A stretch of DNA of 64,000 nucleotides from Candidatus Poribacteria bacterium (GCA_965205025.1 CBDBFU010000002.1:320001-384000); one strand, 5' to 3'. Numbered from the stretch's first letter, positions 271-53,725 are shown. The notes: generated by a model not told the origin, from the sequence alone. Numbers and translations are program-made.

Positions 271-1175
271 TAGTAAACTTTAGAATTAATGATACATGTT
301 TATAACTTCATCAATGGTTATATCAGCATTGTATTCTCTGAGACGTTTGATATTCGCAAAGTCGTGTTCAATCGGGTTGTAGTCCGGTGAATAAGGTGGC
401 AAAAACAATACCTCTGCTCCCGATGCTTCTATCAACTCACGCGTCCGAAGCGTCTTGTGGATCTTCGCATTATCAAGAACAACCACGTCTGAGACAGACA
501 GCCGTGGACATAAATAGGCTTCAAGCCACGCATTGAAACACGCAGAATCGCAGCTTCCATCAAACAAACAAGGTGCCGTAAAAGTCGAACCGATACGCGC
601 TGCGACCAGCGTCGTTGTTCGTGTTCTTGTGCCTGAGATCAAACCTAAGACACATTCACCTTTCGGGGCATAGCCATGACGCCTATAACTTTCAGCACGA
701 AAACCGCATTCATCAACATAAACTATCTTTTTACCAGCGGCGTGTTTCTCGGTGAGTGTCTGACGGTAGCCCCTACGTTTCTCATCGCACCGCTCCTTAT
801 ATCCGATTGTTTTTTTTTCGTGTGATGCCGAGTTTCCGCAACCCATAGGCTATAGAAGACTCTGAAACACCGAAATGTGAGGCGCGTTCGTTTTGCGTCA
901 AGTCTGGGAAATCAGCGACATGTTTTTTCAGTGCTGCCTCGTCAAGCACTCTCATGCTTTTGGGCCCCGGTTTTTGGGTCGAAAGCGGGTCTTCAGCGGC
1001 TAACCATCTATAAATCGTTGAACGATTCAGAGAAAAACGACGGGCAGCTTCGGCTTTTTTCCCGCCAGCTTCAATAAAATCTAAAACGCGTTTGCGTAAA
1101 TCTGTTGAATATGCCATAATAGACACATTCTACTACAAAATACAAAAAATGTCTCTTTAATTCTGATGGTCACTA
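271..1175 (-). mobile_element. IS630-family insertion sequence (~905 bp) with TA target duplication
   Basis: Imperfect TIRs TAGTAAACTTTAGAATTAA / TAGTGACCATCAGAATTAA. TA at 269-270 and 1176-1177. Contains an HTH ORF and a DDE_3 ORF. Confidence 0.92.
286..1126 (-). CDS. IS630 transposase in two frames (HTH 797-1126; DDE 286-846) joined at an A9 run
   Basis: MAYSTDLRKRV HTH; catalytic VYVDECGF, VLDNAKIH, YNPIEH; A9 run (T at 810-818) at the overlap. Confidence 0.9.
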
Positions 1176-27305: not shown

Positions 27306-28358
27306 TCAGAAGGTAACATCATCTAACCTTGAGGATTTAAGCACTTCCTCAAAAAGCGAGTCAAGTTGAACAAGATCATTGATCTGTCTTACTTTATTAG
27401 CAAAACTGTCGGGAACTTCATTAAACTTATGTTGGCTCAGTCTGATTACAGAGTTCTGCTTCTCCTGAATTATGCCCTGCATCACGCCTTTTTCTATAAG
27501 TAATTCGGCACTTGTCATAACCATATCTTGTACCTCTTTGTCTTGTATATGCGTCTGCATAACTTCTAATAAATCTGTCCGATCTTCCGATGGACGACGA
27601 AAAAATATTAACTGATATAGATACAATAGTACATTCTGATACTGCGATACAGATACTGAATCTAAACTTTGAATATATGCTAATGCCTTATTTAATGCAT
27701 TCCGAATAGTTGATGTGTCAGCATCCTCTTGTTGAATAACCTGCAACAACCATCCTAACGGATTACCTGTTTTCGTTAGATCCCTAACATCCACATCCTT
27801 CACACCGAGGAATAATGTATCAAACTTCGGTACAAATGGCGTAAACAAGGATGGCACTTCCATCGCTGTTGTAAGAGATATAGGCGTCTTCCATTTTTGA
27901 GAACCCGTATAATAAACGATTGGAAGGATTGGACGCAATCGCCATTCACTTCTTGGTATGTCTGATGCCTCTAATTCCCGTCTTTGACCATCCCAAATTT
28001 GACACATATAAAACAATACACGGAATGCCATCATCCGATCAACCGTGGATTGATGTTCTATTAGAATATAGATCAACAATTCTTCAGTGGTTTTTTCACT
28101 TTCGAAAGGAACACTGAAAATCATATCAGATTCTAATTCTTTTAGTGAGTCAGAAATATAACTCCTATTCAGTTCAGTGAGTCTACTAAAATCAAGATAT
28201 TCCACTAATTCACTTGCGACAATCTCCACTAATCCACGCACATTCTCTTTTTCAGTAAATAACCACCGAGCACTCCTATCTGGATAATGTGCTGGAGAGA
28301 TATCAAAAAGACTGCGTATTTCTTGTAATAGTTTATCCTGCTTATCTTCTTCTTTCAG
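27306..28358 (-). CDS. Rpn/YhgA-like (Transposase_31, PD-(D/E)xK) recombination-promoting nuclease; probable CTG start
   Basis: ELESDMIFSV, ILIEHQS, ILPIVYYTG; frame extends upstream to a CTG at 28358 with GGAGG 6 nt before. Confidence 0.8.
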   Translation of the reverse strand: MKEEDKQDKLLQEIRSLFDISPAHYPDRSARWLFTEKENVRGLVEIVASELVEYLDFSRLTELNRSYISDSLKELESDMIFSVPFESEKTTEELLIYILIEHQSTVDRMMAFRVLFYMCQIWDGQRRELEASDIPRSEWRLRPILPIVYYTGSQKWKTPISLTTAMEVPSLFTPFVPKFDTLFLGVKDVDVRDLTKTGNPLGWLLQVIQQEDADTSTIRNALNKALAYIQSLDSVSVSQYQNVLLYLYQLIFFRRPSEDRTDLLEVMQTHIQDKEVQDMVMTSAELLIEKGVMQGIIQEKQNSVIRLSQHKFNEVPDSFANKVRQINDLVQLDSLFEEVLKSSRLDDVTF

Positions 28359-28608
28359 TATTTTCCTCCAAATACGGATGTTATTTTATAAATTAACATA
28401 ATTGGTACAGAATGTCAAACTGATCTATAGCTGGGGGTGTGTAAACTTTTTGTCACCATAGGTATTATTTTACTCATTAGTCTCTTCTGTAGGAGGGAAC
28501 TCCGATTCCCGACTCTTCTCTTCCTCTTCGTAGGGGCGGGGTCTCCCCGCCCGATATTTGTATCGCAATCTTCATCCAGATTGTGTCTTGCGGTATAGCA
28601 CAAACTAA

Positions 28609-28751
28609 ATGAAGATTAAAATAATAATTCGGTAATGTGTTAGAAATTCGAATCAACGGTATGAATGCTATTTAGCATTCCCCGTGGTTAGGAAACCGAA
28701 CCTACCGAGTTTGGAAAATAGGAATTACCGAATTTAAAACTTAATCCTCAT
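28609..28751. mobile_element. MITE-B (143 bp), non-autonomous derivative of the IS at 44232
   Basis: Ends ATGAAGATTAAAATAATAATTCGGTAA / TTACCGAATTTAAAACTTAATCCTCAT match the IS TIR; inverted copy at 36890-37033. Confidence 0.85.
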
Positions 28752-28920
28752 ACAGTTTGTGCTACAAAATTGACACATATAGAGACAAATTATTTACATA
28801 CCCTATTGATTTAATAGCCGTAAAGGTGTATCCTTATATAAGTAAAGTATCACTCCGTTCAATTCAACACACTAACGTTTTGCACAATAGCATTCTAATA
28901 AACATTTGAGGTATCTCTTT

Positions 28921-31900
28921 ATGGTAAATCATAAATTATATATCTTCTCAACCGTAACGATCTTTTTCATGTTAGGTGTTTTCATAGGTGTCCTTGAAGC
29001 GGGACAAGCCGATGAGACGATAATTGATGAAGAACAAGCAATTATTCAGGAATTTGTTAAGAAAGCACAAGAATACGTGGAGCTTAATCAGATTAAGGAA
29101 GCAATAGAAATCTACGAGAGAATAGTCATTTCAGACCCAGAAAACCAAGATATTCGATTAGAACTTGCAAGACTCTATAAGGTGACATATCAGTACGAAA
29201 AAGCTATCGGAATTTGGAATGAATTGCTTGAAAGTGAACCACGAAACAGAGAATATCAAGAACAACTATTTAATAGTTTACAGGATGCTGGTAAAAGTAG
29301 TGAAGCGTTTGAACTCGCACAAGCATATAGTAAAACACAACCAGAAGTCGGTTTCTATTATACGCAACTCGCAGGACTCTATGCTGATGAAGATAATATA
29401 GATGCAGCTATAACCAACTATGAAAAAGCAATTGAATTCTCAGACGGTAGTGTAACAACATGTTTCATTCTTGCGAGATTATATTTTCTAAAAGAGGACT
29501 TCAAAGCTTCTGAAAAAGCACTGAAGACCGCTATGCTATACGCATCATCAGAGTGGGAACAGAGTAGAATTCAACAGCAATTGATTAACCTATATCGGCA
29601 TCAAGGAAATATAGCACAGGCGGCACAAAAGGTTGAAAATAATGACATTACATTCGATTTACAGAGAGAATATGCACGACTTCTTTTAACAACAGGGGAA
29701 TTGGAAAAATCTGTAAATGCTTTCAAAAAAGCTCTTGAAATGACCACCGATTCTTATGATATAAATAGGGTTACCGAAGAACTGATCAAGGTATATATTA
29801 AACAAGGTAGAACCGACTTAGCATTGGATTTCTTTGATGCTGAATCATCAAAACATCCCAGAACAGAAATCGCGGAAAGATATTATAGTTCAAACTACGT
29901 TACAGTGGAATTTCATCATGATTACGCACGCGAAATACTCATAAATGCCTATAAAGATCAAGGGGAATTTGAGAGTTTGAGAAACCTCTTCATAGAGAGA
30001 ATTGAAGAGGAAGCAGACAATCCAACTAACTTAGAAATGTTGGCTGATATTTATTGGAACTCCTACCATTATCCTCAAGCAGCTAATACTTACCTTAAAC
30101 TCAGTAAAGCCGAACCTTACAATATACGAAGTTTTTACCTCGCAGCCGCTGCATTCCAGAGTAGTGACGAACCTGATATGGTGAAAAAGGTATTGGCAGA
30201 AGCGGATAACGCTCTTGCAACCAGTCAATATAGGAATGATTGGTTATACATCGGTTCTCTTGCCACAATATGTCGGGACAGAAATTTGTATGACCACGCA
30301 ATAAAACTCTCTAATGAGGCTATTAACATATTAAAGGAATCGGAAAACGAATGGACTCTCAGGTATATGTACGAAATACTTGCCAAGATTTATCTTGATG
30401 TCAAACGTTATGAGGATGCTTTTTTAGCAATATCATGAAATGGCGAATGCTACAACAAACAGCTATACGCGACAAAGAGCAGCAAGAGGAATGAGAGAAA
30501 TCGCTAAAGTTGCAAATGTATATGAAAAATTGATACCAGAGCAACTTAGACAGCTTCAGCAAAATCCTAACGATCCCGATCTAATCCTAAAACTCGCTGA
30601 AAGCTACCAATTATCTAATAAATATAATGAAGCAGTTGAACAATATGAAAAACTCACTATGCTCCAACCTGACGAATCTCAGTGGTACAAGCATTTAGGG
30701 GACCTGTATCAACACGTTGCGATAGAGAAAAATAACACAGACGAAGTAATTGAAGATACGGCACTTTCTCTCGGGGGAAATCTGAGTTATGTTGAAATCA
30801 AAGACAGTGAAACTATAGACAATACTACCCAACAGTTAACTGTGTCAACATGGGTAAAACCTACCGTTTTTCCGAATAGATATACCCCAATAATTTTTAA
30901 AGGTGATGAATGGGATGACAACTTTGAAAAACGCAGTTATCTCCTTAATCTTATGGACACTGGTGCCATTCAATTTTCTGCCTCTCCAGCAATGACACCT
31001 GATGTTTCTATCTATTCCCCTGCCGGATCCGTCAAACTCAACACATGGACACATATTGCAGGTGTCATTGATACAAAAAACGACCTTCAAAAGCTATTTA
31101 TTAACGGTGTTGAAGTAAGTCGTAGTCATTTCAAAGGAAAGGCCAGTATTCATAAAAGCCGTCTACCCCTTCGTATCGGATGGACACATGAGGCAGACCA
31201 TCCTTGGCACGCATCTTTTATTGGACAAATTGATGATGTACGGGTTTGGAACATTGCACGTACTGAATCCGAAATTCAATCTGATATGAACACTCAACTC
31301 AAGGGAGATGAGGACGGCTTAGTCGGATATTGGAAATTTAATGAAATAATCGAAGAAAAAATAGCAGATGTTTCACCTAATAGAAATGTTGGTAATACCG
31401 TTGGAAATGTAAAACTTGAACAGTATACACGACCAATTATAAAGTCATTACAGAAGGGAACAGATGGCAAAATCTATTGAGGCTTATGAAAAGGCGATCA
31501 CACTTGAGCCTACTTTGTATGAACACTATGACTTGTTAGCACAATCCTTTGCAAGAAGTGGACACACTTCAGAAGGCTGAAAGCCGTATATCGACGCACA
31601 TTGGACACACCTCTAAAACAGTATGAGTACGATTCAGCAATCATGGCTATTTCTAACCTTTATTCTGACGAGAGCCAAGAAAATAAACGACTCGCTTTGC
31701 TTGAAGAAATAAAACCGAAAATGGAAAATAGTGCTACACTTCATATTCTCTTAGGTGACCTGTATAAAAAAGCAGATGAAACCGAAAAGGCAGAACAGCA
31801 TTATGCTGAATGGTTGAAAATACGGGAGAGAGAACTTAACAACGAACAGGAAGCAAGGGTATTACACGATTTTGCTGAAGAACTCCTTGATAAAGAACTC

Positions 31901-33396
31901 TTTCCAGAAACTGCCTTAAAATTTGCTAAACGTGCATTCCATAAAAACACCGGTTCAGATTATATCTATTCAGATACAATCGGACAAGCGTGTATGGCAA
32001 ACGGGTCATTTGGTGAAGCACTCAAGTATTACAGTTATGCGATAGGCAGTAAATCCTCTGTATATGCATCGGAAAGAGTTTGGAAAAAAATTATTGAGGA
32101 AGGAAAGAAATACAAAGAGGATGAACAGTTCATATACATGCTTGATGTCTTACTCGATTCTATCCCTCAGGTAGAAATTAGTAATCGGGCAAATGCACAC
32201 CGTATGATCGCACAATTCTATGGCAAGCAAGGGATGCAATGAAAAATCAGAATACTATACTTTAAAAGGTGGGTTCATCCCTGAAAATCGATGGTTAATT
32301 TTGGGACCATTTGAAAGTATATTTGGATTCGGTCATTCAAACGCATATATCCCTGAAGAGGTGACACAGATTGACACAACAGCAAAATACTATGGTAAGA
32401 ATGAACTTATAAGTTGGGAAAAATCAAACATATCAGTTGTTAGATGGAAGTTATTATATTCACGGTAACAATGATTCAAGCGCTGCATATTTTTGGGCTA
32501 CTGTTATCTCCCCTGATGAACGGGATGTTAATATTCGGTTTGACAGTGACGATATGGGAACCATTTGGTTAAACGGGAAACAGATTTTTAAACATGACAG
32601 AGCCAGTGGTACGCAACTTGATCGGTATACCATACCTTGTACACTAAAGCAGGGAGAAAACACAATCTTACTCAAAGTATGCCAATCAACACAAAGTTGG
32701 GAATTCTACTTCCGCTTTACAGATGCAGACGGTATTCCGTTTAAAGATCTCAAATATAAAACAGCAGATGAGTTGTTGATCGCTACACCTCCTGAACCTA
32801 CATTTCATCTGAATAGTATGCTTGGTATGATTGAATATTATAGTAAAAACGACATGCAGGATAAAGCGATGGCACTGATCCAACAAACTGGACTTATTCA
32901 TGAACATTTCTGGCTAACTCTCGGACCGTTCGATAACACAGAAGGGATTGCATACAATACAGAGTATATCCCCGAAAACACACCGAATATTGACATGACT
33001 GCAGAATATGAAGGCGTAAACGGACAGATAAGTTGGGAAAAATTTACGGATGCTGTGTTCGACGGTTTTATTGATTTCGGAAAAGATATTAATTGGTCTG
33101 CTTCCTACGCATTGGCAACTGTAACCTCCCCTGATGCACGAGAAGTCCAATTCCGAGTCGGAAATGATGACCAAGCGAAAATATGGTTAAATGGCAAACA
33201 AGTGTATGCTAACACAATTGAAGGATGGGCAATTGTTGACAACAACATTTTTCCTGTCAAACTCAAAGCAGGTAAAAACACTATCCTTATCAAGGTGTGT
33301 AATGCGAAACGTGAATGGGGATTCTATCTAAGGATTACGGATACTGATGGAAAACCATTTAGCGATTTGACTTTTGACACTTTTCAGGATAATTAA
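28921..33396 (+). CDS. Large secreted TPR + LamG/concanavalin + duplicated beta-sandwich protein, split into 5 ORFs by probable +1 errors
   Basis: Signal peptide, many TPRs, LamG (WTHIAGV, FIGQIDDVRVWN, GLVGYWKF), two WLxLGPF...DD..IWLNG...WGFY domains; frames rejoin on removing single bases. Confidence 0.75.
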
Positions 33397-33627
33397 ATCA
33401 TGTTCTGTATATTCCCACCGAAAAATATTGCTTATATACTAAACTTTAGATTTAATCAGACACTTTACTTGTAGGAGCGACCTCCCGGTCGCGACCAGGG
33501 AGGTCGCTCCTACAGAAGAAGGTGGGACGCAAACATAAGATGTATACATTCCCGTCCAAACAGAAATCTAATTCTGCCTACATTCCTCCGCATAACAATA
33601 ATCTGAAATATAATCCTCCTTATGTAA

Positions 33628-33741
33628 TACCGTCTCTAATTGAAAATGTTTCTTTTTTTGTACCACAAACTTTCAGTTTGTGACCTGAAAAATGACTACC
33701 ATAATAACCGCCTAATGAAACAATAATTTATAGAAATAGTA
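33628..33741. mobile_element. MITE-A (TIR TACCATTTCTA-like) containing the palindrome CACAAACT-NNN-AGTTTGTG
   Basis: Related copies at 36845-37102 (with nested MITE-B), 40344-40453, 45654-45766, partial ~53455-53537. Confidence 0.75.
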
Positions 33742-33821
33742 TAAATATGTACCATCATTAAATTTATGCACCAGTTTAACTCAGTGACTCGCGGTCACTA
33801 TAGAGTAATCTGAGGTAATCC

Positions 33822-36775
33822 ATGCAAAACAATGATGTTGAAATAATTCGTCGTATTCTTGATGGTAATGATACCGCATTCGCTGAACTTGTGAATAAGT
33901 ATCAAAGAACAGTTCACGCACTGGTATGGCGTAAGATTGAAGATTTTCATATCGCCGAAGAATTAACACAAGACATCTTTTTGAAAGTGTATCAAAAATT
34001 GAATACCTTGAAGAAACCACACTGTTTCACAAGCTGGCTCTATGTGATTGCTTCGCGACGCTGCACTGCTTGGTTGCGTAAAAAGCGTATGTTAACGCAG
34101 CCAATTGAAGATACTACGGATTTAGAACCTGAAAAAAGTAAATACTCAAAGTATGTCACTGAAGAAAACGAACGTACAGCAATAGAAGCACAACGTGAAA
34201 TCGTCCGAAAGTTGCTTGCTAAACTGCCAGAGAGTGAACGAACTGTCATAACATTACGCTACTTCAGTGATATGTCCAGTGCAGAAATTGGTGCGTTTTT
34301 AGGGGTATCCGCAAATACGGTGAGAAGTCGTCTTCGTCGAGCACGGAACCGTTTACAAAAGGAGGAAACAATGATAAGAGAAGCACTCGAACATTTCCAA
34401 ATATCACCAAACCTAACCGATAACATAATGCGAGAAGTTTCACGTCTCAAACCTGCTGCCCCTTCTACCAGCAAACCTATAATCCCGTGGGTGATAGGTG
34501 CTACAAGTGCAGTATTGATTGTGCTAATGCTCGGTATTGGCAACCAGTACTTAGCATATTACCAACAACCTTATAGTATAGAAGCACAAACTGAGATGTC
34601 GGTTGAACTTCTTGACACTCCCATTGTTCCATTAATTGAGACAGAACCGAATGTGCGTCGACAGTTTGGAAATATAAATGCAGTTGGTAAAGACAATAGT
34701 CCAAGACAAAATCCGGATGACGTATTATTGGCTTCTGCACAAGCGGAAGGAGAAGATGTTTCTGTCCCTAAACAGCAGTGGATTCAGTCGGCACCAATGT
34801 CCGGAAGTTCTACACAGGAACTCCTTGCTACATCCGATGGGGATCTCTACTCTTATACAACTGGACATCTCTACAAATTGCCTGCTGACGGGAAAATCTG
34901 GCAACATCTCTTTGAAATTTGGACACTGAATCATACCCAATTAAATAATCCAGTTCTTGCTGAGTGGAACAAAACATTGTACTTTACGCAATCAAGTGAA
35001 CTTTTTGCTTCAATAGATGATGGTAAAACATGGAATTTAGTTTACTCTTGGAAAGAAACACACTCTAATCCGATTGAAATGATTCTAACAGACCACGAAT
35101 TTTTATATCGCTTTTGACAACGGTATTTTCCGTTCTAATGATTACGGTGAAACTTGGAAGCCTATAAGTGGGGTATTTGATGGAAGTATTAATGCCTTAG
35201 TTAAGGTACAAAACACACTTCTTGCAGGAACAGATAACGGACTTTATCGTTTAGATACAGAAGGCTGGAAACGTCTGGAATTTCCAGAACCTATAGAATG
35301 GGTGTATTCAGTCGCTGTAACTGAAAACATGATCTATATTTTGGCATCACTCGAGAGATCTGCACTTAATCCTGCCAAAGTGTCACGTGGACATGAACGA
35401 GGGTGGGTGTTATTTGGGTCAAGCAACCTTGGTAATAGATGGATTGATATAACCCCAATAAATGCATGGGCAGTAAATGGCTTTATTCCTGAAGCCAAAC
35501 TAATTGCAACAGGTGATACCATTTTACTAATGGAAAGAGGCATGGTTCGGTCTGCTGATTCGTGGAATAACGTGGTCACCTCCACAATTATCAGGTACCA
35601 CACCTTTTATGGATAGTTATAGTCCTGCTGCAGTAGTGAACGCTGATACTATTTATGTCGATGGGGGTAGTCTACACCGATCCACCGATTACGGGAAATC
35701 ATGGGAAATAGTGAATATTACACCAGATAATAAAAATGATGGAATATATAATCTCATAGTGTTCGCAGGAGGTGAAAAAGATAATAACACGCGTCCTTTC
35801 CTTTACGGTAAATTCGGAGCAGAAGGCATAAAAACAACCGATAAAGGTAAGTCTTGGAAAGATGTTCCCGTTGAAATTTCGATGTCAAAACCCTTCAGGG
35901 AAAATTCCTTAAGTATAAATCAGATAATCAAATCTGGTGATATACTTTATGCAAGCGTAGACTATCAGTTAAGTGGAGAAAAAGTACGGATCTATAAACT
36001 CTCATCTAATGGCAGCAGGTTTTTACCAATACAAGAGATCCCAATTTTTGACTCAGGTAGGTTAGCGCTTGAATTAGAACGTAATCTCTCTGTTGATCAT
36101 TTGCAAACCCAATTTCTTGGAGCTCCACAGTTCTTCAAACAGCTGGTTATTGGAAATGCACAACAACAAAAAATGCTTATACAACGTGGATTAGAAGGAG
36201 CTTTTGATGTCAGTGACGATACGTTCTACATGGAATATAATTTTAAGCTCTTCAGATGGAAGATGGGTGATACTGAATGGTATGATACCGGTGTTGAAGA
36301 AACTGTTGAATTGTCTGAGAGTAATGCAAAGAAAAAACTAAAACTTGCTGCCTTTGAGAATGCTGTCTACGTCGGGAAACGGAATGGACATCTCATAGTA
36401 TCCTTTGATAGGGGAACTAATTGGATAGATCTAACACCAGCCCTACCTTTTTCCGTTCAAACATTCAATGAAATCGTGTTTGTAGGAACTACTGTGTATG
36501 TAGCAACAAATGCTGGTGTAATAGCATCAAGTGATGGGAAGCAGTGGTCAATTGCCTCCAATTCTGATGACGCAAATCTCATTATGGAACACTTATCTGT
36601 TGATGAAAACACCCTTTATGGGATTAAGGACACAGGTATTTATCGCTTGGAAAACGGTATTTGGAAACAGATCGTCACAGAGATACCTGATAAGGTAACT
36701 TCTCTGGCTGTTGATGGGAAAACCTTATACGTAGGTACAGAAACCCAAGGCATGCTACACTATACTCTTGAATAA
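33822..36775 (+). CDS. ECF sigma - TM - BNR propeller fusion (#2), two +1 frameshifts
   Basis: ORFs 33822-35117, 35302-35616 and 35609-36775 are colinear with #1/#7; extra T at ~35100 and ~35560. Confidence 0.85.
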
Positions 36776-36793
36776 CATTTAGACATAATTCAG

Positions 36794-36817
36794 TGGACGG
36801 TGTACCAGCACCGTCCA
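36794..36817 (+). terminator. Hairpin after ECF #2
   Basis: TGGACGGTG-taccag-CACCGTCCA; weak U-tract. Confidence 0.45.
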
Positions 36818-36844
36818 TTCCTACCCATCTCCTAATTTACTTTA

Positions 36845-37102
36845 TACCAATTCTAATTGAAAATGTCTCTTTTTTGTACCACAAACTTTATGAGGATTAA
36901 GTTTTAAATTCGGTAATTCCCATTTTCCCAAACTTGGTAGGTTCGGTTTCCTAACCACGGGGAATGCTAAATAGCATTCATACCGTTGATTCGAATTTCT
37001 AACACATTACCGGATTATTATTTTAATCTTCATTCAGTTTGTGACCTGAAAAATGACTACCATAATAACCGCCTAATGAGACAATAATTTATAGAATTGG
37101 TA
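36845..37102. mobile_element. MITE-A with nested MITE-B (36890-37033)
   Basis: Compared with empty MITE-A copies at 33628 and 45654. Confidence 0.85.
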
Positions 37103-37226
37103 TAATATCTTAATCTCATTGATAAATACACTCCTAAAATGTGAGACTTTTTCATCTCAGTATGCGTCACTATATTATGAATATGTCAATACACAACCAT
37201 ACACATTTCATGTACAGAGGTATCTG

Positions 37227-40142
37227 ATGAAAAATGAAGATGTTGAACTCATTAACCGTGTCCTTGATGGCGATGATGATGCATTCTCTGTCTTAGTGAA
37301 TAAATATCAGAAATCAGTTCACACACTTGTTTGGCGGAAGATTGAAGATTTTCACATAGCTGAGGATATCACTCAGGAAACATTCCTAAAAGCATATCAA
37401 GAACTGGCATCCCTGAAAAAACCACAACGATTTTCCAGTTGGCTATATGTAATTGCGACAAATCACAGTAACACATGGCTACGTAAAAGACGTTTATCCA
37501 TGCAATCAATAGAGAATACAAGTGATGTACAGATAGAAAATGCAACATACTCAGAATATATAAGCTCGGAAAACGAGAAAACAGTTGCTGAAGTACAGCG
37601 TGAAGTCGTCAAGAAAATACTTGGACAGTTACAGGAAAGTGATAGAACTGTCATGACTCTTTACTACCTCGGGGAAATGAGCTATGAGGAAATCAGCGAG
37701 TTTTTAGGAATATCGGTGAGTGCCATTAAGAACCGACTTTACCGTGCACGACAACGCTTAAAGAAGGAAGAACCAATGATAAGAAAAGCTTTAGACCATT
37801 TCAATATCACACCAAATCTCACAGAAAATATAATGAGCGAAATTTCAAAAACGAAACAGGTGACACCATCGGGTAGTAAACCATTTATCCCGTGGGTGCT
37901 TGCTGCTTCAAGTACTCTCCTTATTGTGTTCATGCTTGGAATAAATAGTCACTTCTTCGTCCGTTTCCAAAAACCTTATAGTTTAGATGCGCAGGCTGAA
38001 ATGCAGGTAGAACTTGTTGACACTCCAATTGTGCTTAACCTCGAATCCGAATCAGATCACCCAACACAACTAAAAAATGCTAACCTAAGTGAAAATAACA
38101 CCTCTAATCGGCAGCCTGATAACATCTCAGTATCAGCGGCAGAAGCACAATCAGAGAAAATAAATAAACATTACTCACAATGGAAACTACCCAAAAAGGC
38201 AAAAGCGCGCTTAGGAAAGGGTGGTATTAAGGTGATTCAATATTCACCGGATGGAACGCTACTTGCTGTGGGTACGAATATCGGTGTGTGGTTGTACGAT
38301 GTGGAAACTGGTGAAGAGAAAACCTTATTTCCAGGAATGTGCCAATCTATTGCTTTTTCACCTGACAGTCGCTTCTTGGCAAATGGGGGTGGTAGATCAT
38401 CAGGAACAAGAATCAATTTGTGGGAAATTGCTACGGAACGTGAAGTATTACTCACGGATATGTATGATTCTGCTTCAACGCTAAAATTCACCTCAGATGG
38501 GAAAACACTTATCAGTATTAGCAATTTAGGGGATACAATTACCAGATCAGATGTTGAAACAGGAAAAGGAATTATGAAGCATCTCAAAACTGGGAGATTA
38601 AACGCTTTTGGTCCAGATATTCTTGATGCTGGTGTTTATGCAATCACACATGATAAAGTCGCAATTGGAAGGAGGAATGGAAAGATCCAAATACGGGACA
38701 CATCAACTCATAAGGAATTATTCAATCTCAACGGACATTCAAATACGTTTAGGAAAAACAGCAAAGACCAAATCTTAGCATTGACATTTTCATACGACGG
38801 TACGCGCCTTGCCAGTGGAAGTACCGATACAACAGTACGTTTATGGGATACTGATAAACCTGATGACAGTATCATACTTCAAAAACATACAGGTTGGACA
38901 AATGTCTTATCGTTTTCACCGAACGGAAAGATGCTTGCCAGTGGCAGTACGGATAAAACTGTACAGTTGTGGGATACAACTACAGGAAAAATCCTCGCTA
39001 CATTTACTGGACATATCAACGGCATTACAGCATTAGCGTTTTCGCCGGATAGCACAACGCTTGCCAGCGGCAGCACAGACGGCACGATTAAGTTCTGGCA
39101 TACCGAAACTGGAAATCCATTAACTAATCGTATCACGGGGCACACGCAATGGACAAGAGCAGCAACCTTCTTTAAAGACAGTTCCACGCTTGCGAGTGTA
39201 GCATTTAATGGCGTCATTACACTTTGGGATGTGAAAACAATGCAAAAGTCTACTGTTCATACTGTAGGACATCGAGATTTGGTCTCGACATTAGCGTTTA
39301 CACCGGATGGTACGAAACTTGTTAGTGTAGGAGCAGATGGGAGTGCAATCTTCGAATCGGCTTCTGGACATCCTTTTTCTTCGTGGCAACCGGATCATCT
39401 GGTTAGTTTGACTGATGTTCGTACGGGTCGCGAAGTAACAATCTTAAACTTTAGTAGAGGCATCGCACATATGATTTTTTCTCCTAATGGAAAGACAGTA
39501 GCATTTGGTAGTTTAGGGGAAATTCATTTGTGGAATACGGAAACCGGTAATGAACTGAACATCCGCATGGATAATCAGGAAACCAATATCCACAATATGT
39601 CATTCGTCACTGTCTTAGCATTTTCCCCAGACGGCACAACCCTTGTTAGCGGAACTGATCAGGGTGATATCCAAGGGTGGAATGTTGAAACAGGAAAAGC
39701 ATTACCAGTATTTGCAAAATTGAAAGAACAAAAGGACTTGGATAATATTTCAGCACTTAGTTTTGCACCTGATGGCACCTTGCTTGCTGCCGGAGCACAT
39801 AATCGGATTCATATATGGGAAGTGAATACTGGGAATAAGCTTCTATCAGTTAAGACCGAACATAAGCGAGGTAAAATGATCTTCCAAAGCTACCCAGAAC
39901 CGTTGGTATTTTCACCAGATGGAACGATTCTTGTTAACGGACATATCCACGGTGCAATTCAATTGTGGGACGTTACAACTGGCAATCAGATCGCTGTCCT
40001 TGATGGACACACACAGAAAGTGGAGACGTTGAATTTTTCACCTGATGGCAAAACTCTCGTTAGTACTGCCGCAGATGGTACAATCCTCTTGTGGGATTGG
40101 GATGAAGTCCTTGCTGATTCATCCAAAAGCAAACAACAGTAA
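37227..40142 (+). CDS. ECF sigma - TM - WD40 fusion (#3)
   Basis: Start MKNEDV after GAGGT; sigma4 SAIKNRLYRAR; WKLPKKAKARLGKG then about 14 FSPDG/WD repeats. Confidence 0.9.
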   Translation: MKNEDVELINRVLDGDDDAFSVLVNKYQKSVHTLVWRKIEDFHIAEDITQETFLKAYQELASLKKPQRFSSWLYVIATNHSNTWLRKRRLSMQSIENTSDVQIENATYSEYISSENEKTVAEVQREVVKKILGQLQESDRTVMTLYYLGEMSYEEISEFLGISVSAIKNRLYRARQRLKKEEPMIRKALDHFNITPNLTENIMSEISKTKQVTPSGSKPFIPWVLAASSTLLIVFMLGINSHFFVRFQKPYSLDAQAEMQVELVDTPIVLNLESESDHPTQLKNANLSENNTSNRQPDNISVSAAEAQSEKINKHYSQWKLPKKAKARLGKGGIKVIQYSPDGTLLAVGTNIGVWLYDVETGEEKTLFPGMCQSIAFSPDSRFLANGGGRSSGTRINLWEIATEREVLLTDMYDSASTLKFTSDGKTLISISNLGDTITRSDVETGKGIMKHLKTGRLNAFGPDILDAGVYAITHDKVAIGRRNGKIQIRDTSTHKELFNLNGHSNTFRKNSKDQILALTFSYDGTRLASGSTDTTVRLWDTDKPDDSIILQKHTGWTNVLSFSPNGKMLASGSTDKTVQLWDTTTGKILATFTGHINGITALAFSPDSTTLASGSTDGTIKFWHTETGNPLTNRITGHTQWTRAATFFKDSSTLASVAFNGVITLWDVKTMQKSTVHTVGHRDLVSTLAFTPDGTKLVSVGADGSAIFESASGHPFSSWQPDHLVSLTDVRTGREVTILNFSRGIAHMIFSPNGKTVAFGSLGEIHLWNTETGNELNIRMDNQETNIHNMSFVTVLAFSPDGTTLVSGTDQGDIQGWNVETGKALPVFAKLKEQKDLDNISALSFAPDGTLLAAGAHNRIHIWEVNTGNKLLSVKTEHKRGKMIFQSYPEPLVFSPDGTILVNGHIHGAIQLWDVTTGNQIAVLDGHTQKVETLNFSPDGKTLVSTAADGTILLWDWDEVLADSSKSKQQ

Positions 40143-40618
40143 AACAGGTTATAGAAGAGGTAACTACCTGCAGATTGCAAGTGCTTGCCTCCTTATCCTT
40201 GATTCACTCAAAAGTCCAATTAAGTCGCACACCTCACGTTAAACCTCCGCGCTTACTGTCATCTCCAGACTATATTTCAGTTTCCACATGGACAGAGTTT
40301 TAATGAACCTACCTCAAAATAATCTCCTGTCAATTAGCAGTTATACCATTTCTCATGTTTAATGCATCTTAGATGTAGCGTAACTTTCAGTTTGGGCAGT
40401 ATTTCAAGTCCGCACAACAACTATTCATGGAAGAAACATTTATAGAGATGGTATTATATCCTTATCAACAGGATAGAACTAAACCCTCTTTTCACAAACT
40501 CTCATCTATAATAATGTTGATAATCAGCATATTGCAGAATTATGAGACCTTTTTTATCTCAAGTAGCATCATTAAATGTTGATATCAATTGATGACCATT
40601 CCATTTTCAGAGGTGCTG

Positions 40619-43600
40619 ATGAAGAACAACGATGCAAAACTCATCCAACGTGTCCTTGAAGGCGATGATACGGCGTTCTCCACACTCGTGCAAAAATATC
40701 AGAAGTCCATTCACGCATTAGCGTGGCGAAAGATCGGAGATTTCCATATCGCAGAAGATATTACACAAGATACATTACTGAAAGCGTATCAAGAACTCTC
40801 GACGCTAAATGAACCGCAGCGTTTTGCGAGTTGGCTCTATGTGATAGCTTCAAACTACTGTAAGATGTGGCTACGTAAGAGAGGTTTATCAACGGAGTCG
40901 TTGGAAAACATAAGTAGCACCCAATTAGAGAAAACGACCTATTCTGAGTTTGTCATTGAGGAAAAAGAACGGTCAGCAGAAGAAACACAGCGTGAAGTCG
41001 TTAAGAAATTGCTTGCGAAACTGCAGGAGAGTGAGCGCACCGTCATGACACTTTATTACCTCGGAGGAATGACACACGAAGAGATAAGTGAGTTTTTAGG
41101 AGTATCGGTAGCTGCGATTAAGAATCGTTTATACCGAGCACGAAACCGATTAAAGAAGGAGGAAACAATGATAAGAGAAGCACTTGAACATTTTCAAATA
41201 TCACCTAACCTGACTGATAATATTATGAAGGAAATTTCTCGGACAAAACAGATGACACCATCGGGTAGTAAACCGTTTATCCCGTGGATAGTTGGTGTTA
41301 CTGCTGTAACGATAGTGATGCTGATGCTTGGATTTAGCAACCAATTCTTATCACGTTTCCAGAAGCCATATAATTTCAATGCGGCTTCAGATATGAGGGT
41401 TGAATTGATTGATACTCCTATTGTGCAAAACCTTGAATCTGATCCAGATGACCGAACGCAGTTCGAAAATGCAAATGCAAAAGGTGAGAACATTGAAGTT
41501 GGGCAGCAAACCGATAGCATCGCTTCACTTGACTTAGATACAATAATTTCAAAGATAAAACACAACGATAATGCTGTTACCTCCGTAACCGGTGATTTCG
41601 TAAGGGAACGCCATCGAGGGAATAATAAAAAGGGAATTAGAGGAACAGAATTTACATTGACTTTTGAAGGCAAGAAAATCAAAGTAGAAGGACAGGAGGG
41701 ATTCCCTTCTATCTTGTATTGGGATGGTGAACGCACATGGGAGGGGGCAAAGTCCCAAAATCTGATATTTAATTTTGAAATTGCACATGGCAAGGAGAAA
41801 ACTGATCTTGAGATGATTCAACAAGCATTCAAACAACAAGGTATTGAACTCACTGATGATGTTAGCATCGTTGCTGGGGACGAACCGCAGAGTTTCACAC
41901 TTATTGAGAACAAGACAGATAAAACTTACCATTTTTGGTTGGAGGGAGAAACGACGCTGTTTGTTTACGATTATCAACTCGAATATAGTACTCGACCTAT
42001 GTGGATGATTTTTTTCTGACTATGACCCGAGGTATTGGCTTACCTTTGCAATCGTTTCAGGAAACTCCTATTTATCCGAGCCGCTTTGGCATTTGCTTGA
42101 GAAACATGATAGCAAAATTATTGGTAATGAGATATTGAACGGTGAAAAGACATCCGTTATCCGTCTAACTATACCTGTTGTGTCCAATGGAGACATCAAA
42201 AGACCTGATAAGTCCTATAAACTCTGGGATTTCTCATGACAAAGGCTTTCGATTGGTTAAATCAGAAGAAACATTTACTGTTGAAAATCCGACAGAATGG
42301 AGCTCCTTCAAAGCGGGTGTAACTTATATTAGAACCCGAAAAATTGATTATCATGAATACATACCGGGTGTCTGGTTTCCTAAAAGAATTGAGTCGTCTA
42401 CGGCTCAAAAAGCATCATCGGAACAACAGGGTGGAGAAAATGTTATTTACAAAGATGTCCCTTCTCACGAAGCAGTGTCGGGTAAATACCGATGTCACTG
42501 AGTTATTAAGTTTAGGTCTACATCCTGCTACACCTGTAATCGATTACGCGGATGGCCGGCAAAAGACAATAACCGATGTGTTAAATCCAAAGGTTATTGA
42601 TACTTGGATACTTCTCAATAATGCTACTATGTCAGATAGGAAAGATGCCTCTAACCAGCAAATCTATAAACCCGCTTCAATTGACTTAGGTACGATTATC
42701 GCCAAGATGAAGGAATATGATGATGCGATACTCTCAGCAAGTGGAAAATTCGTTATTGAACACCAAAAAGAAACTGGGGCAGCCAACACAGAATATGCCT
42801 TGACGATTGAAGATCAGAAAGTCCGTATCCAACGAGAATGGCTTCCTTCCCCTATAGTAAAAGATACTCCACTCGTAGAACAACTTTTACCAAATGTAGA
42901 GTTATATGATGGGAACCAAAGATGGGACATATATAAGTACAAGAAACTACTCTTAAGCATTGAAATTGTACGGAATAAAGAGCATTCTCTCCTACAAACA
43001 ATTAAACAGACGTTCAAACAACAAGACATTGAAATTGCTGACGATCTACACATCATTGCAGAGAACGCACCAGATAGTTATACGCTTGTTGAAAGCAAGA
43101 CCGGCAAAACCTATTCTGTCATATTGATAGGAGAGACAACATTAAAGATTTATGATCTTAAACATGTGGAATATGCCGTTCGAGATTATATGGAACATCA
43201 GGACCGCCGACTCCATGATCCTGTTCGTCATCAGTGGGGTATGTTTTCAAACCTTGATCCGAGATATTGGCTTACTTATCCAAGCGCTGGTGGAATAACC
43301 TATTTAACTGAACCACTTTGGCAGCTGCTTGAAACACATGAGAGTCAACTCCTTGGTAGCGAAAATCTGAATGGTGAAGAAACATCCGTTATTCGTGTAA
43401 ATACACCTGATCAATCTCTCAAACTGTGGATTTCTCATGAGAAAGGTTTTCGTTTGGTTAAGATGCAAAGAGCATTTCTTATAGAAAATCCGAAAGGTAT
43501 TTTGGAATTAAAATACTTCCAACCGGGAATAACTTATGTTGAAACACGTGAAATTGATTATCAAGAATATTCACCAAATATTTGGTTCCCTAAGAAAATT

Positions 43601-44065
43601 GAACGGTACTATATTCCTAATGCAGTAGAGGAACCACAACTCAAGGAGCAGGTTATTTTAAAAACTGTAATTCACACCAAACAATGCCAAATAAATACTG
43701 ATGTCACTAAGTTAATCCGTTTAGATCTGCCTCCTGACACACCGGTTTTCGGTTTAAGGATGGGAAAAGATACACCTAAGGCAGAAAAAATCGATTATTT
43801 ACGAGAAGAAATCTTTCGTACTCTTAAACGTCGTCTTGACTTACGTAAAATAGATAACAAGCTTGTCGAATTTGATCATGAAAATCCTAATGTCTTTCTG
43901 CTAAGAAATCAAGTCCACGAAGAAAAAAGCAAACTACGACATGTAATTTCTCTTATAATTTCTGAGTATATGACGTATTCCAAGGATTTCTCAGTTATTG
44001 AGTCTGGTGGTCTGTTCTATGACCTGATGGAACAAAACGGTATTTATATTCAGATGGGTAAATAA
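40619..44065 (+). CDS. ECF sigma - TM - tandem LolA-like-domain fusion (#4), split by probable +1 errors
   Basis: ORFs 40589-42019, 42178-42501 and 42344-44065; duplicated unit DLxTII.K...DPRYWLT...LWISHxKGFRLVK...WFPKxIE. The LolA-like fold is inferred. Confidence 0.75.
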
Positions 44066-44231
44066 TCACTAAAATCCATGAAGGTTCCATCACAAACTTT
44101 CAAATTTCTTTGACTGTACCCCCTGCGGGTGAACGGTGAATATTATACCATTTTCAATTAATACACTTACATTATGATTTAAGTGAAACAGGAACAATCA
44201 TATAAGATTTATGAGTCCCGGGGAATGCCTA

Positions 44232-45472
44232 ATGAAGATTAATTTTTTAATTCGGTAAATTTTATTTTTGTGCTATCCTCTTGTTCAAGGAGGTATTTAT
44301 TCATGGCAAAACATCATAAACTTGAACTCAGTGAAACTGAACGACAAAAACTCGTTGAACTCCGTGATAAAGGCGAACCGGCTTATCTACGAGAACGCGC
44401 TGCTGCCCTTTTGAAAATAAGCGAGGGGTTTTCCCCTCACAAAGTCGCCCGAAAAATGCTCTTGAAAGAACGCGATCCTGATACGGTCTATTCGTGGCTT
44501 CACCGATACAATGAAAACGGTATTCAAGGTTTATTCTATACACCCGGTCGTGGTCGCAAACCTGCTTATTCCCCTAAATCCCCCGAAGAAGCAGAGGCGG
44601 AGGTCTATAATACTATCGCACAGGGACCTGAACAACATAATCCGCATCAAACACGATGGACACTCCGATCCCTTGGAAACATCGTCCCTTGGCTCAGTGA
44701 TGTGTCTGTGCCGGGTATTCACAAAATCCTTAGTCGACTCGGTCTCAGCTATAAACGCGCTCGCTTATACATACATAGTCCGGATACAGACTATGCCCAA
44801 AAAATAGACAGGGTCCAGCAAGTTTTGGAAGAGACCCGTCAACATCCACAGACCTGTGTTGCGCTTTACCAAGATGAGTTCTCGTTTTATCGCAACCCTA
44901 CCATAGCAAAAGACTGGGCACAAACAGGCACGAAAACACCTTTAGCCCGTCAGAGCTACAGACACAACCAAACGTGCTATGGGATCGGGGCTCTGAACCC
45001 ACATACTGGAGATGTTGTTTACCAGCAAGTTTCACGCTGCACTGCTGAAGCACTTCATTCTTTTTACACCGAGATTTGCCAACGCTACGCAAACAAGCAA
45101 CGGATATATTTGATACAAGACAATTGGTCAACCCACTTTCAAGCTAACTTATTGGAAGCACTTCTCCCGCAAACAGCATCGTTTGTGAAACCGAAGCCAC
45201 CGAATTGGACAGGTAAACCCTCAGAGAAAATCGGAACACTACAAAAACTTCCGATTGAGATAATACAACTACCGACTTATGCGCCGTGGACGAACCCGAT
45301 TGAAAAGTTATGGCGATGGGTGCGTCAATCGGTTTTACATAACCATCGTCATTGCGATGATTGGGAAATCGTGAAAGACAAGGTGATTAGTTTTATGTCG
45401 CAGTTCATAGGAGGATCACAGATGCTGCTACGCCAGATCGGATTATTACCGAATTAAAAAATTAATCTTCAT
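44232..45472 (+). mobile_element. IS630-family element (1241 bp), perfect 27-bp TIRs, inserted at a palindrome centre
   Basis: TIR ATGAAGATTAATTTTTTAATTCGGTAA at 44232-44258 and 45446-45472; flanks GAATGCC-TA | AT-GGCATTC. Confidence 0.92.
44303..45457 (+). CDS. Intact IS630-family transposase
   Basis: AAGGAGGT RBS; HTH, PGRGRKP, YQDEF, IQDNWSTH, NPIEKLW. Confidence 0.9.
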   Translation: MAKHHKLELSETERQKLVELRDKGEPAYLRERAAALLKISEGFSPHKVARKMLLKERDPDTVYSWLHRYNENGIQGLFYTPGRGRKPAYSPKSPEEAEAEVYNTIAQGPEQHNPHQTRWTLRSLGNIVPWLSDVSVPGIHKILSRLGLSYKRARLYIHSPDTDYAQKIDRVQQVLEETRQHPQTCVALYQDEFSFYRNPTIAKDWAQTGTKTPLARQSYRHNQTCYGIGALNPHTGDVVYQQVSRCTAEALHSFYTEICQRYANKQRIYLIQDNWSTHFQANLLEALLPQTASFVKPKPPNWTGKPSEKIGTLQKLPIEIIQLPTYAPWTNPIEKLWRWVRQSVLHNHRHCDDWEIVKDKVISFMSQFIGGSQMLLRQIGLLPN

Positions 45473-46079
45473 ATGGCATTCATACCCGGGTAACGCCAAA
45501 AGGCGTTCATACCGTTGATTCCTTGATTTGGTAGGGACGGAATGTCTATAGCAAAGGTTTATATCCACATAATTGAGTCCCGTAGGGACGGAATGTTTAT
45601 AGAATATCTTTGAACTAAATTAGCTTCTCTGATTTGCTGTTAATGTAAACTAATACCATTTCTAATTGAAAATGTCTCTTTTTTGTACCACAAACTTTCA
45701 GTTTGTGATCTGAAAAATGACTAACATACTAACCGCCTAATGAGACAATAATTTATAGAAATGGTATAAAATATGAAATTAATGGTTGATTGATCTGAAT
45801 TATCCTCCCATTTTATATTTCAGCCCCCTTTCATTGAAGCTAAAATCTATATCTATTCGGAAATATCGGGCTTAAGTTATAGATTATGGTATAATTCCCC
45901 ATAGTTCAGCAATCATCCCACTACAAGTATCCATACCTTCCGTTATCAAATGGATAGAATTTTAACCCAATTTAGATGAAATAATTCCTCCTTTTTCAAA
46001 ATTGTGAGATTATTTTTCTTCTCATCGCGTCACTCTATATAGATGCGAAATGATACATATTTCCTTTAAGAGGTATTTG

Positions 46080-53357: not shown

Positions 53358-53725
53358 TTTACGGGCGGGGAAACCCCACCCTACGATAATTTTATGGACT
53401 GGATCACCGAAATATTTACTTAATCCTCATACGGTGTAGACAATAACCCTCTCTTTGTGCCACAAACTTCCAGTTTGTGTAGTATTTCAAGAAATAAATA
53501 TCACCTTATCATGGGAGAATCATTTATAGAAATGGTATTACTTAATCCTCATACGGTGTAGACAATAACCCCCTCTTTGTACCACAAACTTTTAGTTTGT
53601 GATCTTACTCCCTATCCTCCCCAATCACCCATCTCACTTTTCAACTGCTAAACCCAACCAAATTGCAAGGTTATTTAGTTTTCGTATTTTCTGCTATATT
53701 TTTCACATTTCTATATAAACTACCT

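Follow-up and report, generated by a model that had tools for sequence, protein, structure and literature searches.

We examined how a transposable element is placed in a 64,000-nucleotide (nt) stretch of DNA from a Candidatus Poribacteria bacterium (GCA_965205025.1 CBDBFU010000002.1:320001-384000; hereafter the window). [quoted passage not shown] The relevant features, with positions counted from the first base of the window, are as follows.

44232..45472, plus strand: full-length IS of the IS630 family, 1241 bp, one of seven paired genome copies that are 99-100% identical
44232..44258, plus strand: left terminal inverted repeat, 27 bp, read directly as a perfect match to the right one
45446..45472, plus strand: right terminal inverted repeat, 27 bp, which holds the last transposase codons
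44303..45457, plus strand: transposase open reading frame (ORF), 384 amino acids (aa) and stop, with HTH_32/HTH_29 and DDE_3 matches and AAGGAGG upstream
44223..44231, plus strand: left target half of the IS, arm GAATGCC and loop bases TA
45473..45481, plus strand: right target half of the IS, loop bases AT and arm GGCATTC
28609..28751, plus strand: MITE, 143 bp, family 1, with the same inverted repeats as the IS
28599..28608, plus strand: left target half of this MITE, arm CACAAACT and AA
28752..28761, plus strand: right target half of this MITE, AC and arm AGTTTGTG
36890..37033, plus strand: MITE, 144 bp, family 1, in the orientation opposite to the MITE at 28609
36880..36889, plus strand: left target half of this second MITE, arm CACAAACT and TT
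37034..37043, plus strand: right target half of this second MITE, TC and arm AGTTTGTG
33664..33682, plus strand: empty paralogous hairpin CACAAACT-TTC-AGTTTGTG, single-stranded DNA fold -6.4 kcal/mol
45689..45707, plus strand: empty paralogous hairpin CACAAACT-TTC-AGTTTGTG, part of a longer repeat that it has in common with the filled site at 36890
53461..53479, plus strand: empty hairpin of the same family, loop TCC
53583..53601, plus strand: empty hairpin of the same family, loop TTT

The IS carries one ORF and 27-bp ends that start ATGAAG, which fits the size and layout of the IS630 family (about 1.1-1.3 kb with one transposase gene). Its product scored 181.7 bits against NCBIfam NF033545 (IS630 family; cut-off 100) and matched PF13358 DDE_3 at E = 1.4e-22, spanning 164 residues for 138 profile positions, with HTH_32, HTH_29, and HTH_23 matches in the N-terminal region (residues 32-146). 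Insertion at TA with duplication of TA, by which the family is also recognized, describes only a minority of its sites, those with T and A at the junctions. The MITEs at 28609 and 36890 are non-coding, and ~116 paired elements of 99-720 bp in the genome carry the IS ends in the manner that defines a MITE, the main families having 53, 35, and 14 copies. The 1241-bp IS is a predicted autonomous element of the IS630 family, and the non-coding MITE families share its ends.

The three occupied sites read as the original prediction had given them, i.e., GAATGCC-TA/AT-GGCATTC around the IS, CACAAACT-AA/AC-AGTTTGTG around the MITE at 28609, and CACAAACT-TT/TC-AGTTTGTG around the MITE at 36890 (here and below, a slash marks the inserted element), and the uninterrupted copies of the last target, CACAAACTTTCAGTTTGTG, are present at 33664 and 45689 where it had placed them. 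Shuffled sequence leads one to expect 0 matches to the empty hairpins in the window. As DNA, the empty sites fold into hairpins with an 8-bp stem and a 3-nt loop (-6.3 to -6.4 kcal/mol), and a filled composite folds as one continuous hairpin made up of the arms, a 2x2 internal loop, and the paired inverted repeats.

We then scanned the whole assembly, a 5.66-Mb metagenome-assembled genome (MAG) of this sponge symbiont in 33 contigs, for the inverted repeat, which yielded 305 ends, namely 125 paired elements (seven IS copies of 1241-1244 bp, two composites of 1590 bp, and otherwise MITEs) and 55 solo ends. Counted with no assumption on target duplication, 92 of the 125 elements leave exactly 2 nt unpaired per side before complementary arms of at least 5 bp begin (hereafter the 2+2 geometry), compared with 50/50,000 in the control, and another 10/125 are symmetric, the unpaired stretch on each side being 0, 1, 4, or 5 nt. 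Once one base is taken out, 98/125 elements have their junction exactly at the middle of a perfect palindrome (stem of at least 5 bp, loop of 1 or 3), as against 461/200,000 random positions (0.23%), and moving the junction by 1-3 bases drops the number of centred palindromes to 0-2. An identical base stands at both flanks of 111/125 elements, versus 26% at random. The original prediction of insertion at palindrome centres with unrelated stems, drawn from the window, thus extends to 52 distinct arm 7-mers and to 84 different pairings of a MITE family with an oriented site, including single-copy palindromes that were targeted at the centre (TTTAGATT-TA/AC-AATCTAAA, GTTGTTT-TC/CT-AAACAAC, and ATAGGCACGGT-GT/AA-ACCGTGCCTAT). 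Six of the seven near-identical IS copies lie in variants of a GAATG(C/A/T)C repeat and one in a unique hairpin, and the arm variants that flank the IS are compensatory (GCC with GGC, GAC with GTC, and GTC with GAC). Two further points of the prediction also held genome-wide: TA is not required, most targets such as CACAAACTTTCAGTTTGTG containing none, and the targets are mostly intergenic repeats that resemble repetitive extragenic palindromic (REP) sequences. Palindrome-centre insertion is far beyond chance, and the feature that stays constant is the 2 nt between each element end and the hairpin arm, whatever the sequence of that arm.

The same geometry surrounds relatives of the IS in five other genomes. 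All ten IS copies in G005 (82-83% identical) and all three in G026 (~70% identical), which belongs to another family of the order, are 2+2, as are the single relatives in G001 (68%) and G007 (64%) and the relatives in two named MAGs (84% identical), one of which is G005. Within the first 1.6 Mb of G005, 10/17 paired elements are 2+2 and 14/17 are symmetric. Metagenome assemblies contain 2625 proteins related to the transposase at E 1e-10 or better, and the best 120 of them each reach an identity of 59% or more, most having a length of exactly 384 aa; many relatives lie on ~1241-bp contigs, a sign that assembly stops at the ends of the element. The window also contains another IS630-family element, unrelated to the first, which provided an internal control.

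271..1175, minus strand: second IS630-family element with a two-ORF transposase, TA at 269-270 and 1176-1177

This ~905-bp element has TA on both sides in 11/11 genome copies, in agreement with the original prediction that it duplicates TA, and arms of at least 5 bp in only 2/11. Many of its sites resemble AACTA/TAAAT, a non-palindromic preference, and one copy lies off-centre in a GAATGC-TAAATA-GCATTC hairpin.

To reconstruct the targets, filled sites were compared with paralogous empty sites that share identical 10+10 flanks. At ACAAACT-type sites, 54/62 had empty paralogs only for the reconstruction with a 1-bp duplication, and the other eight had no match. Over all 125 sites, the flank-matched paralogs fit a 1-bp duplication only in 58 cases, one missing base only in 17, zero or one missing base in six, a blunt event only in two, and a duplication or another outcome in seven, with no paralog for 35. 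Every one of the four bases occurs as the duplicated base. In G005, 80/80 empty sites read CCCCCTT-GAT-AAGGGGG, and five IS copies there are flanked GA/AT. These comparisons make a solid case for a 1-bp duplication in 3-nt loops. The original prediction of such a duplication at all three window sites therefore stands for both MITE sites, which have 3-nt loops, and is not confirmed for the IS site, where the TAT loop that it had inferred does not exist.

The IS at 44232 and 29 other elements occupy a GAATGNC repeat. The TAT loop was found in 0/335 GAATG..CATTC hairpins here and matched once across 40 genus genomes, in a hairpin whose arms are not complementary. The loop pattern TA(A)AT gave ~930 matches in 36 of those 40 genomes, and among the 150 matches listed almost all are TAAAT and none is TAT. 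Empty copies with the IS's own 10+10 flanks have the loop TAAAT (27) or TAAT (seven), none being one base shorter, and the five closest paralogs over 45+45 bases are all TAAAT. Given the lack of TAT loops and the TAAAT paralogs, the central base of the site at 44232 would be missing rather than duplicated. Among the 30 GAATGNC sites, empty paralogs are one base longer only at 17, have zero or one extra base at five, and zero only at two; one site fits a duplication or a blunt event, none fits a duplication alone, and five have no paralogs. Filled junctions follow the loop variants (CTAAT as CT/AT, ATTAA as AT/AA, TAAAT as TA/AT); a TT/AT site with no flank-matched paralog would fit the family loop TTAAT, and the unrelated repeat TACTTC-ATATA-GAAGTA (3/3 paralogs) is filled as AT/TA. 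Repeats with 5-nt loops hold 6/7 complete IS copies. In such loops, as the paralogs show, the two outer bases on each side appear to be kept and the central base to be absent. Scanning metagenomes by exact pattern for unoccupied alleles of the IS sites (window and contig C13) gave 0 matches. In four public read runs examined over 28000-46500, short-read contigs end at the repeats and no contig bridges an insertion site, and at the IS on C13 conservation among the 40 genus genomes covers just the first 331 of 800 flank bases, so that the site is not alignable. Separately, the idea that TAAAT loops are excision footprints was ruled out: only TAAAT and never TATAT is seen, TAAAT dominates across the genus, and the ACAAACT family has no TTTC- or TCCC-like loops.

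Some sites with unequal flanks do not derive from 5-nt loops. They read GT/AA, GT/AT, and AT/AT in this genome, TT/AA in G005, and GT/AC twice in G026, each having T at its left and A at its right junction; a TA/TA site in G001 shows A and T instead. Since an element A-X-T between T and A equals X, 2 bp shorter, with a duplicated TA, these T/A sites, in even palindromes with a central TA where no base is gained or lost, read as canonical IS630-type insertions at the middle of the palindrome. At the MITE at C16:32546, one of these T/A sites, the ortholog in G034 keeps a terminator hairpin with a 4-nt loop, which hints at a putative 4-nt GTAA target.

Several side observations concern the elements themselves. 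Two 1590-bp copies of a family-0 MITE (C26:41879-43468 and C32:142925-144514, locus L107), 99.6% identical, each contain a nested 463-aa DDE_Tnp_1 (PF01609) transposase ORF, sit in different hairpins (ACAAACT and GAATGAC), and both obey 2+2; it looks as if a complete foreign IS was mobilized as cargo by the ends of the MITE. REP-like hairpins also lie inside MITEs (e.g., window 28650-28700 and 36940-36990), GAATGC-TAAATA-GCATTC in one family and GTGCGGTT-AGGA-AACCGCAC in another, and these take further insertions that result in nested elements (e.g., C2:183886 and C31:28425). At C15:455170-455225, sequence that matches the interior of a MITE exactly (TGGTAGGTTCGGTTTCCTAACCACGGGGAATGCTAA..) adjoins the end of CCACAAACT without an intervening terminal inverted repeat, and may be a deleted element or another small repeat that lands in hairpin loops. 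The genome also has three Y1_Tnp (HUH) genes (C27:53137-53481, 72631-72975, and 86996-87340; L040-L042), each flanked on both sides by inverted GTCCC-GTA-GGGAC hairpins in an arrangement like that of REPs and REP-associated tyrosine transposases (RAYTs). These hairpins also occur in the window near 45530-45600 and are never occupied by a MITE in this genome; the same hairpin is the insertion site of the relative in G007.

Taken together, we consider it likely, with a probability of roughly 0.7, that this IS630-family IS and its MITEs integrate at the dyad centre of hairpin palindromes and are joined by distance from the arms, not with a fixed stagger. The structure-directed targeting of the original prediction is thereby retained, with dyad-centre insertion between unrelated arms, and the 1-nt stagger that it had attached to it is given up, as 3-nt loops gain a base and 5-nt loops end up a base short of their empty paralogs.

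We acknowledge that a number of observations depart from this interpretation or weigh against it. First, 13/125 elements are asymmetric and 10/125 are without arms, some of the latter being visibly chimeric or nested. Second, the comparison used paralogous empty sites, not the actual alleles before insertion; for none of the GAATGNC sites did we recover an empty ortholog, and copies belonging to a single repeat family are not necessarily independent events. Third, the missing base is always A or T like the terminal A..T of the element, so its loss is indistinguishable from an insert that is one base shorter. Fourth, under the arm-distance rule every 4-nt loop should receive a blunt insertion at its centre, whereas the observed fillings differ: ACAAACT-GGAA (58 empty) is filled three times as GG/GAA, and CCCCCT-GATA (43 empty) twice as GA/ATA. 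The 4-nt loops of used families are also taken ~10 times less often than 3- or 5-nt loops; GAATGCC-ATAA or -CTAA has 62 empty copies and was filled 0-1 times, compared with 84 empty and 62 filled for ACAAACT 3-nt loops and 57 empty and ~28 filled for GAATGNC 5-nt loops. Fifth, abundant 3-nt-loop families are never used here, namely GCACTCC/GTACTCC with loop GCT (~143), AAAAAGT-GTA (67), TGTCACA (49-97 copies), and GTCCC-GTA-GGGAC (207), so shape alone does not decide the target; hairpin shape is necessary but not sufficient. Finally, 8-bp arms are short for spontaneous cruciform extrusion.

Integration by arm distance might be achieved in the following way, which we hold possible and offer tentatively: a clade of IS630/Tc1-mariner-type DDE transposases would capture an extruded hairpin or cruciform and carry out strand transfer 2 nt from the stem-loop junction, with a net change of +1, 0, or -1 for loops of 3, 4, or 5 nt. 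Within the likely reading above, the target would be captured with an unpaired centre, be it an extruded cruciform, a hairpin, or a strongly distorted duplex; a rigid dimer on B-DNA should leave the stagger constant and have no means of sensing the dyad in unrelated sequences, so the captured centre is most likely unpaired. On its strand, each 3' end would be transferred to a point 2 nt upstream of the 3' arm, and the two strand transfers would be positioned separately by distance from the stem-loop boundary with no fixed stagger. A 3-nt loop would then produce a 1-nt 5' stagger and one duplicated base, a 4-nt loop a blunt event without net change, and a 5-nt loop a 1-nt 3' stagger whose flaps are removed during repair, the host presumably repairing one-nucleotide flaps or gaps. 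Added preferences likely include pyrimidines at the last two arm positions, an adjoining A/T, odd loops, and some repeat families only. Because the elements land in intergenic repeats, most insertions would be harmless. By eye, the transposase has ~60 residues from the second D to the E (QDNWSTH..NPIE, the catalytic residues being our assignment), versus ~35 in the IS630 element at 271-1175 and ~34-35 as the norm of the family, and the ~26-residue insertion between them may, as a speculation, be a hairpin-reading module; a PDB sequence search with the transposase gave no match at E up to 1. Two other cutting positions were ruled out: a cut one base after the 5' arm would duplicate 2 bp in 4-nt loops, one placed two bases after it would cause a deletion in 3-nt loops, and neither fits the observed junctions.

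An alternative that needs no hairpin, and that we regard as unlikely, is that a dimer reads weak symmetric sequence or bendability in the duplex, an exaggerated form of the palindromic flank preference of Tc1/mariner elements. There is indeed a weak half-site consensus over the 52 distinct arms (pyrimidine at -4 in 39/52 and at -3 in 45/52, A/T at -2 in 43/52), hairpin families of equal geometry differ widely in use, IS copies favor GAATGNC while MITEs lie mostly in ACAAACT, and within each MITE family orientation is biased with respect to the asymmetric loop (17:0 for family 1 and ~18:6 for family 0 in ACAAACT, 9:1 for family 0 in GAATGNC), which may stem from a strand-specific step, unequal ends, or co-amplification. 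Yet three degenerate positions are all that the arms share, and insertion is nonetheless base-exact in 92/125 elements; its position tracks the arm-loop boundary for both 3- and 5-nt spacers, unlike what a rigid dimer on B-DNA would do, and unrelated single-copy palindromes are hit at the centre.

Rather improbable, in our view, is a fixed 1-nt stagger at the middle of a 3-nt loop, with the GAATGNC sites arising from TAT variants that have all been filled. It would account for the identical base on both sides of 111/125 elements, is exact for the ACAAACT, AACCCTTAT, CGCAATCT, and CCCCCTT repeats, and is formally compatible with TA/AT, in which an A could be the duplicated base. The loop counts speak against it, with TAT loops at 0/335 here and one in the 40 genus genomes versus ~930 TA(A)AT, and six of the seven near-identical, recently moved IS copies would each need an otherwise unseen variant. 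Moreover, CT/AT, AT/AA, and TT/AT have unequal flanks and match the 5-nt loops CTAAT, ATTAA, and TTAAT.

We also find it very doubtful that the copies are not independent, i.e., that each repeat family received one insertion and the repeat plus its MITE was then co-amplified or spread by gene conversion. Many filled sites do share at least 20 flank bases, the orientation bias is strong (the 17:0 of family 1 in asymmetric ACAAACT loops), the filled composite is one continuous hairpin, and the genome's three Y1 transposases could move hairpins. The rule nevertheless holds at single-copy sites that have no donor, for at least four MITE families and the IS in both orientations, and for diverged elements in other genomes, while the kept loop bases match the local repeat subfamily rather than one donor and the arms beside IS copies differ. 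That the palindromic flanks are the element's own longer inverted repeats can be dismissed for practical purposes: arms and inverted repeats do pair continuously in the folded composite, but hundreds of uninterrupted hairpins with the same flanks contradict this, and identical elements occur with unrelated arms and identical arms with different elements.

Integration at hairpin centres would matter in several ways. TA targeting is held as a hallmark of IS630/Tc1/mariner elements, including the versions used as genetic tools, and a natural clade that disregards TA in favor of DNA shape would demonstrate that this fold's choice of target is open to rewiring. With one protein and 27-bp ends, the element would offer a simple system to study how a DDE transposase recognizes non-B DNA and, if the interpretation is true, its loop-length-dependent junctions are a direct sequence readout of strand-transfer positioning. 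Pile-up in harmless intergenic hairpins and in each other would explain how the symbiont tolerates >100 transposon copies. For annotation, a caution follows that cut-and-paste transposons may lack a constant target duplication.

In our literature search, neither hairpin-centre targeting nor a 1-bp duplication turned up for IS630-type elements, and we saw no account of shape-measured target joining in the superfamily, with ISfinder/TnPedia curation lying outside that search; this is a real, highly non-random, and apparently undescribed target behavior within the known IS630 family. Among known systems, the closest by protein is ISY100 of Synechocystis, for which the source describes almost exclusively TA targets, duplication of TA, and cleavage 2 nt inside the 5' ends (PMC2170065). 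The element described here resembles ISY100 and canonical IS630 elements in its helix-turn-helix (HTH) and DDE_3 domains, NF033545 match, single ORF, length of ~1.2 kb, inverted repeats, and MITEs, and its T/A minority at even-palindrome centres is indistinguishable from TA duplication. It differs from ISY100 in that most targets lack TA, any base or none is duplicated, and dyad symmetry sets the site.

REP-targeting ISs are the closest by target, and those named in a review of them are IS1397/ISKpn1 and ISPsy8 (IS3), IS621, ISPpu9/10, and ISPa11 (IS110), and ISRm22 (IS4), each described there with one REP family and a constant direct repeat of 0, 2, 3, or 6 bp (Tobes and Pareja 2006, PMC1525189). 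Such targeting covers five families, IS3, IS110, IS4, IS256, and IS5, and IS630 has 0 occurrences in the text (PMC1525189). As is described for these elements, of which ISRm22 lies on the axis of palindromy, most copies here occupy a fixed position in repetitive extragenic palindromes, which are harmless sites, and empty copies of the target families number from tens to hundreds. Unlike the elements so described, with their one REP family and constant direct repeat, those studied here use many unrelated hairpins, with a net change (+1, 0, or -1) that varies with loop length.

Potential stem-loops are also entered by IS1272, a member of the IS1182 family. In Staphylococcus aureus, according to the published report, it uses inverted-repeat targets of varied size and sequence without duplication, and the target is replaced and lost (PMC5678879). 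Our element likewise uses potential stem-loops of varied sequence, and it departs from IS1272 in keeping both arms with two loop bases each and in having a different transposase. Recognition of hairpins by their shape would be shared with IS200/IS605 and the REP-associated Y1 (HUH) transposases, which act by single-strand HUH chemistry and have no inverted repeats. Unlike these Y1 enzymes, the element described here encodes a DDE transposase, and the hairpins that flank the Y1 genes are not its target in this genome.

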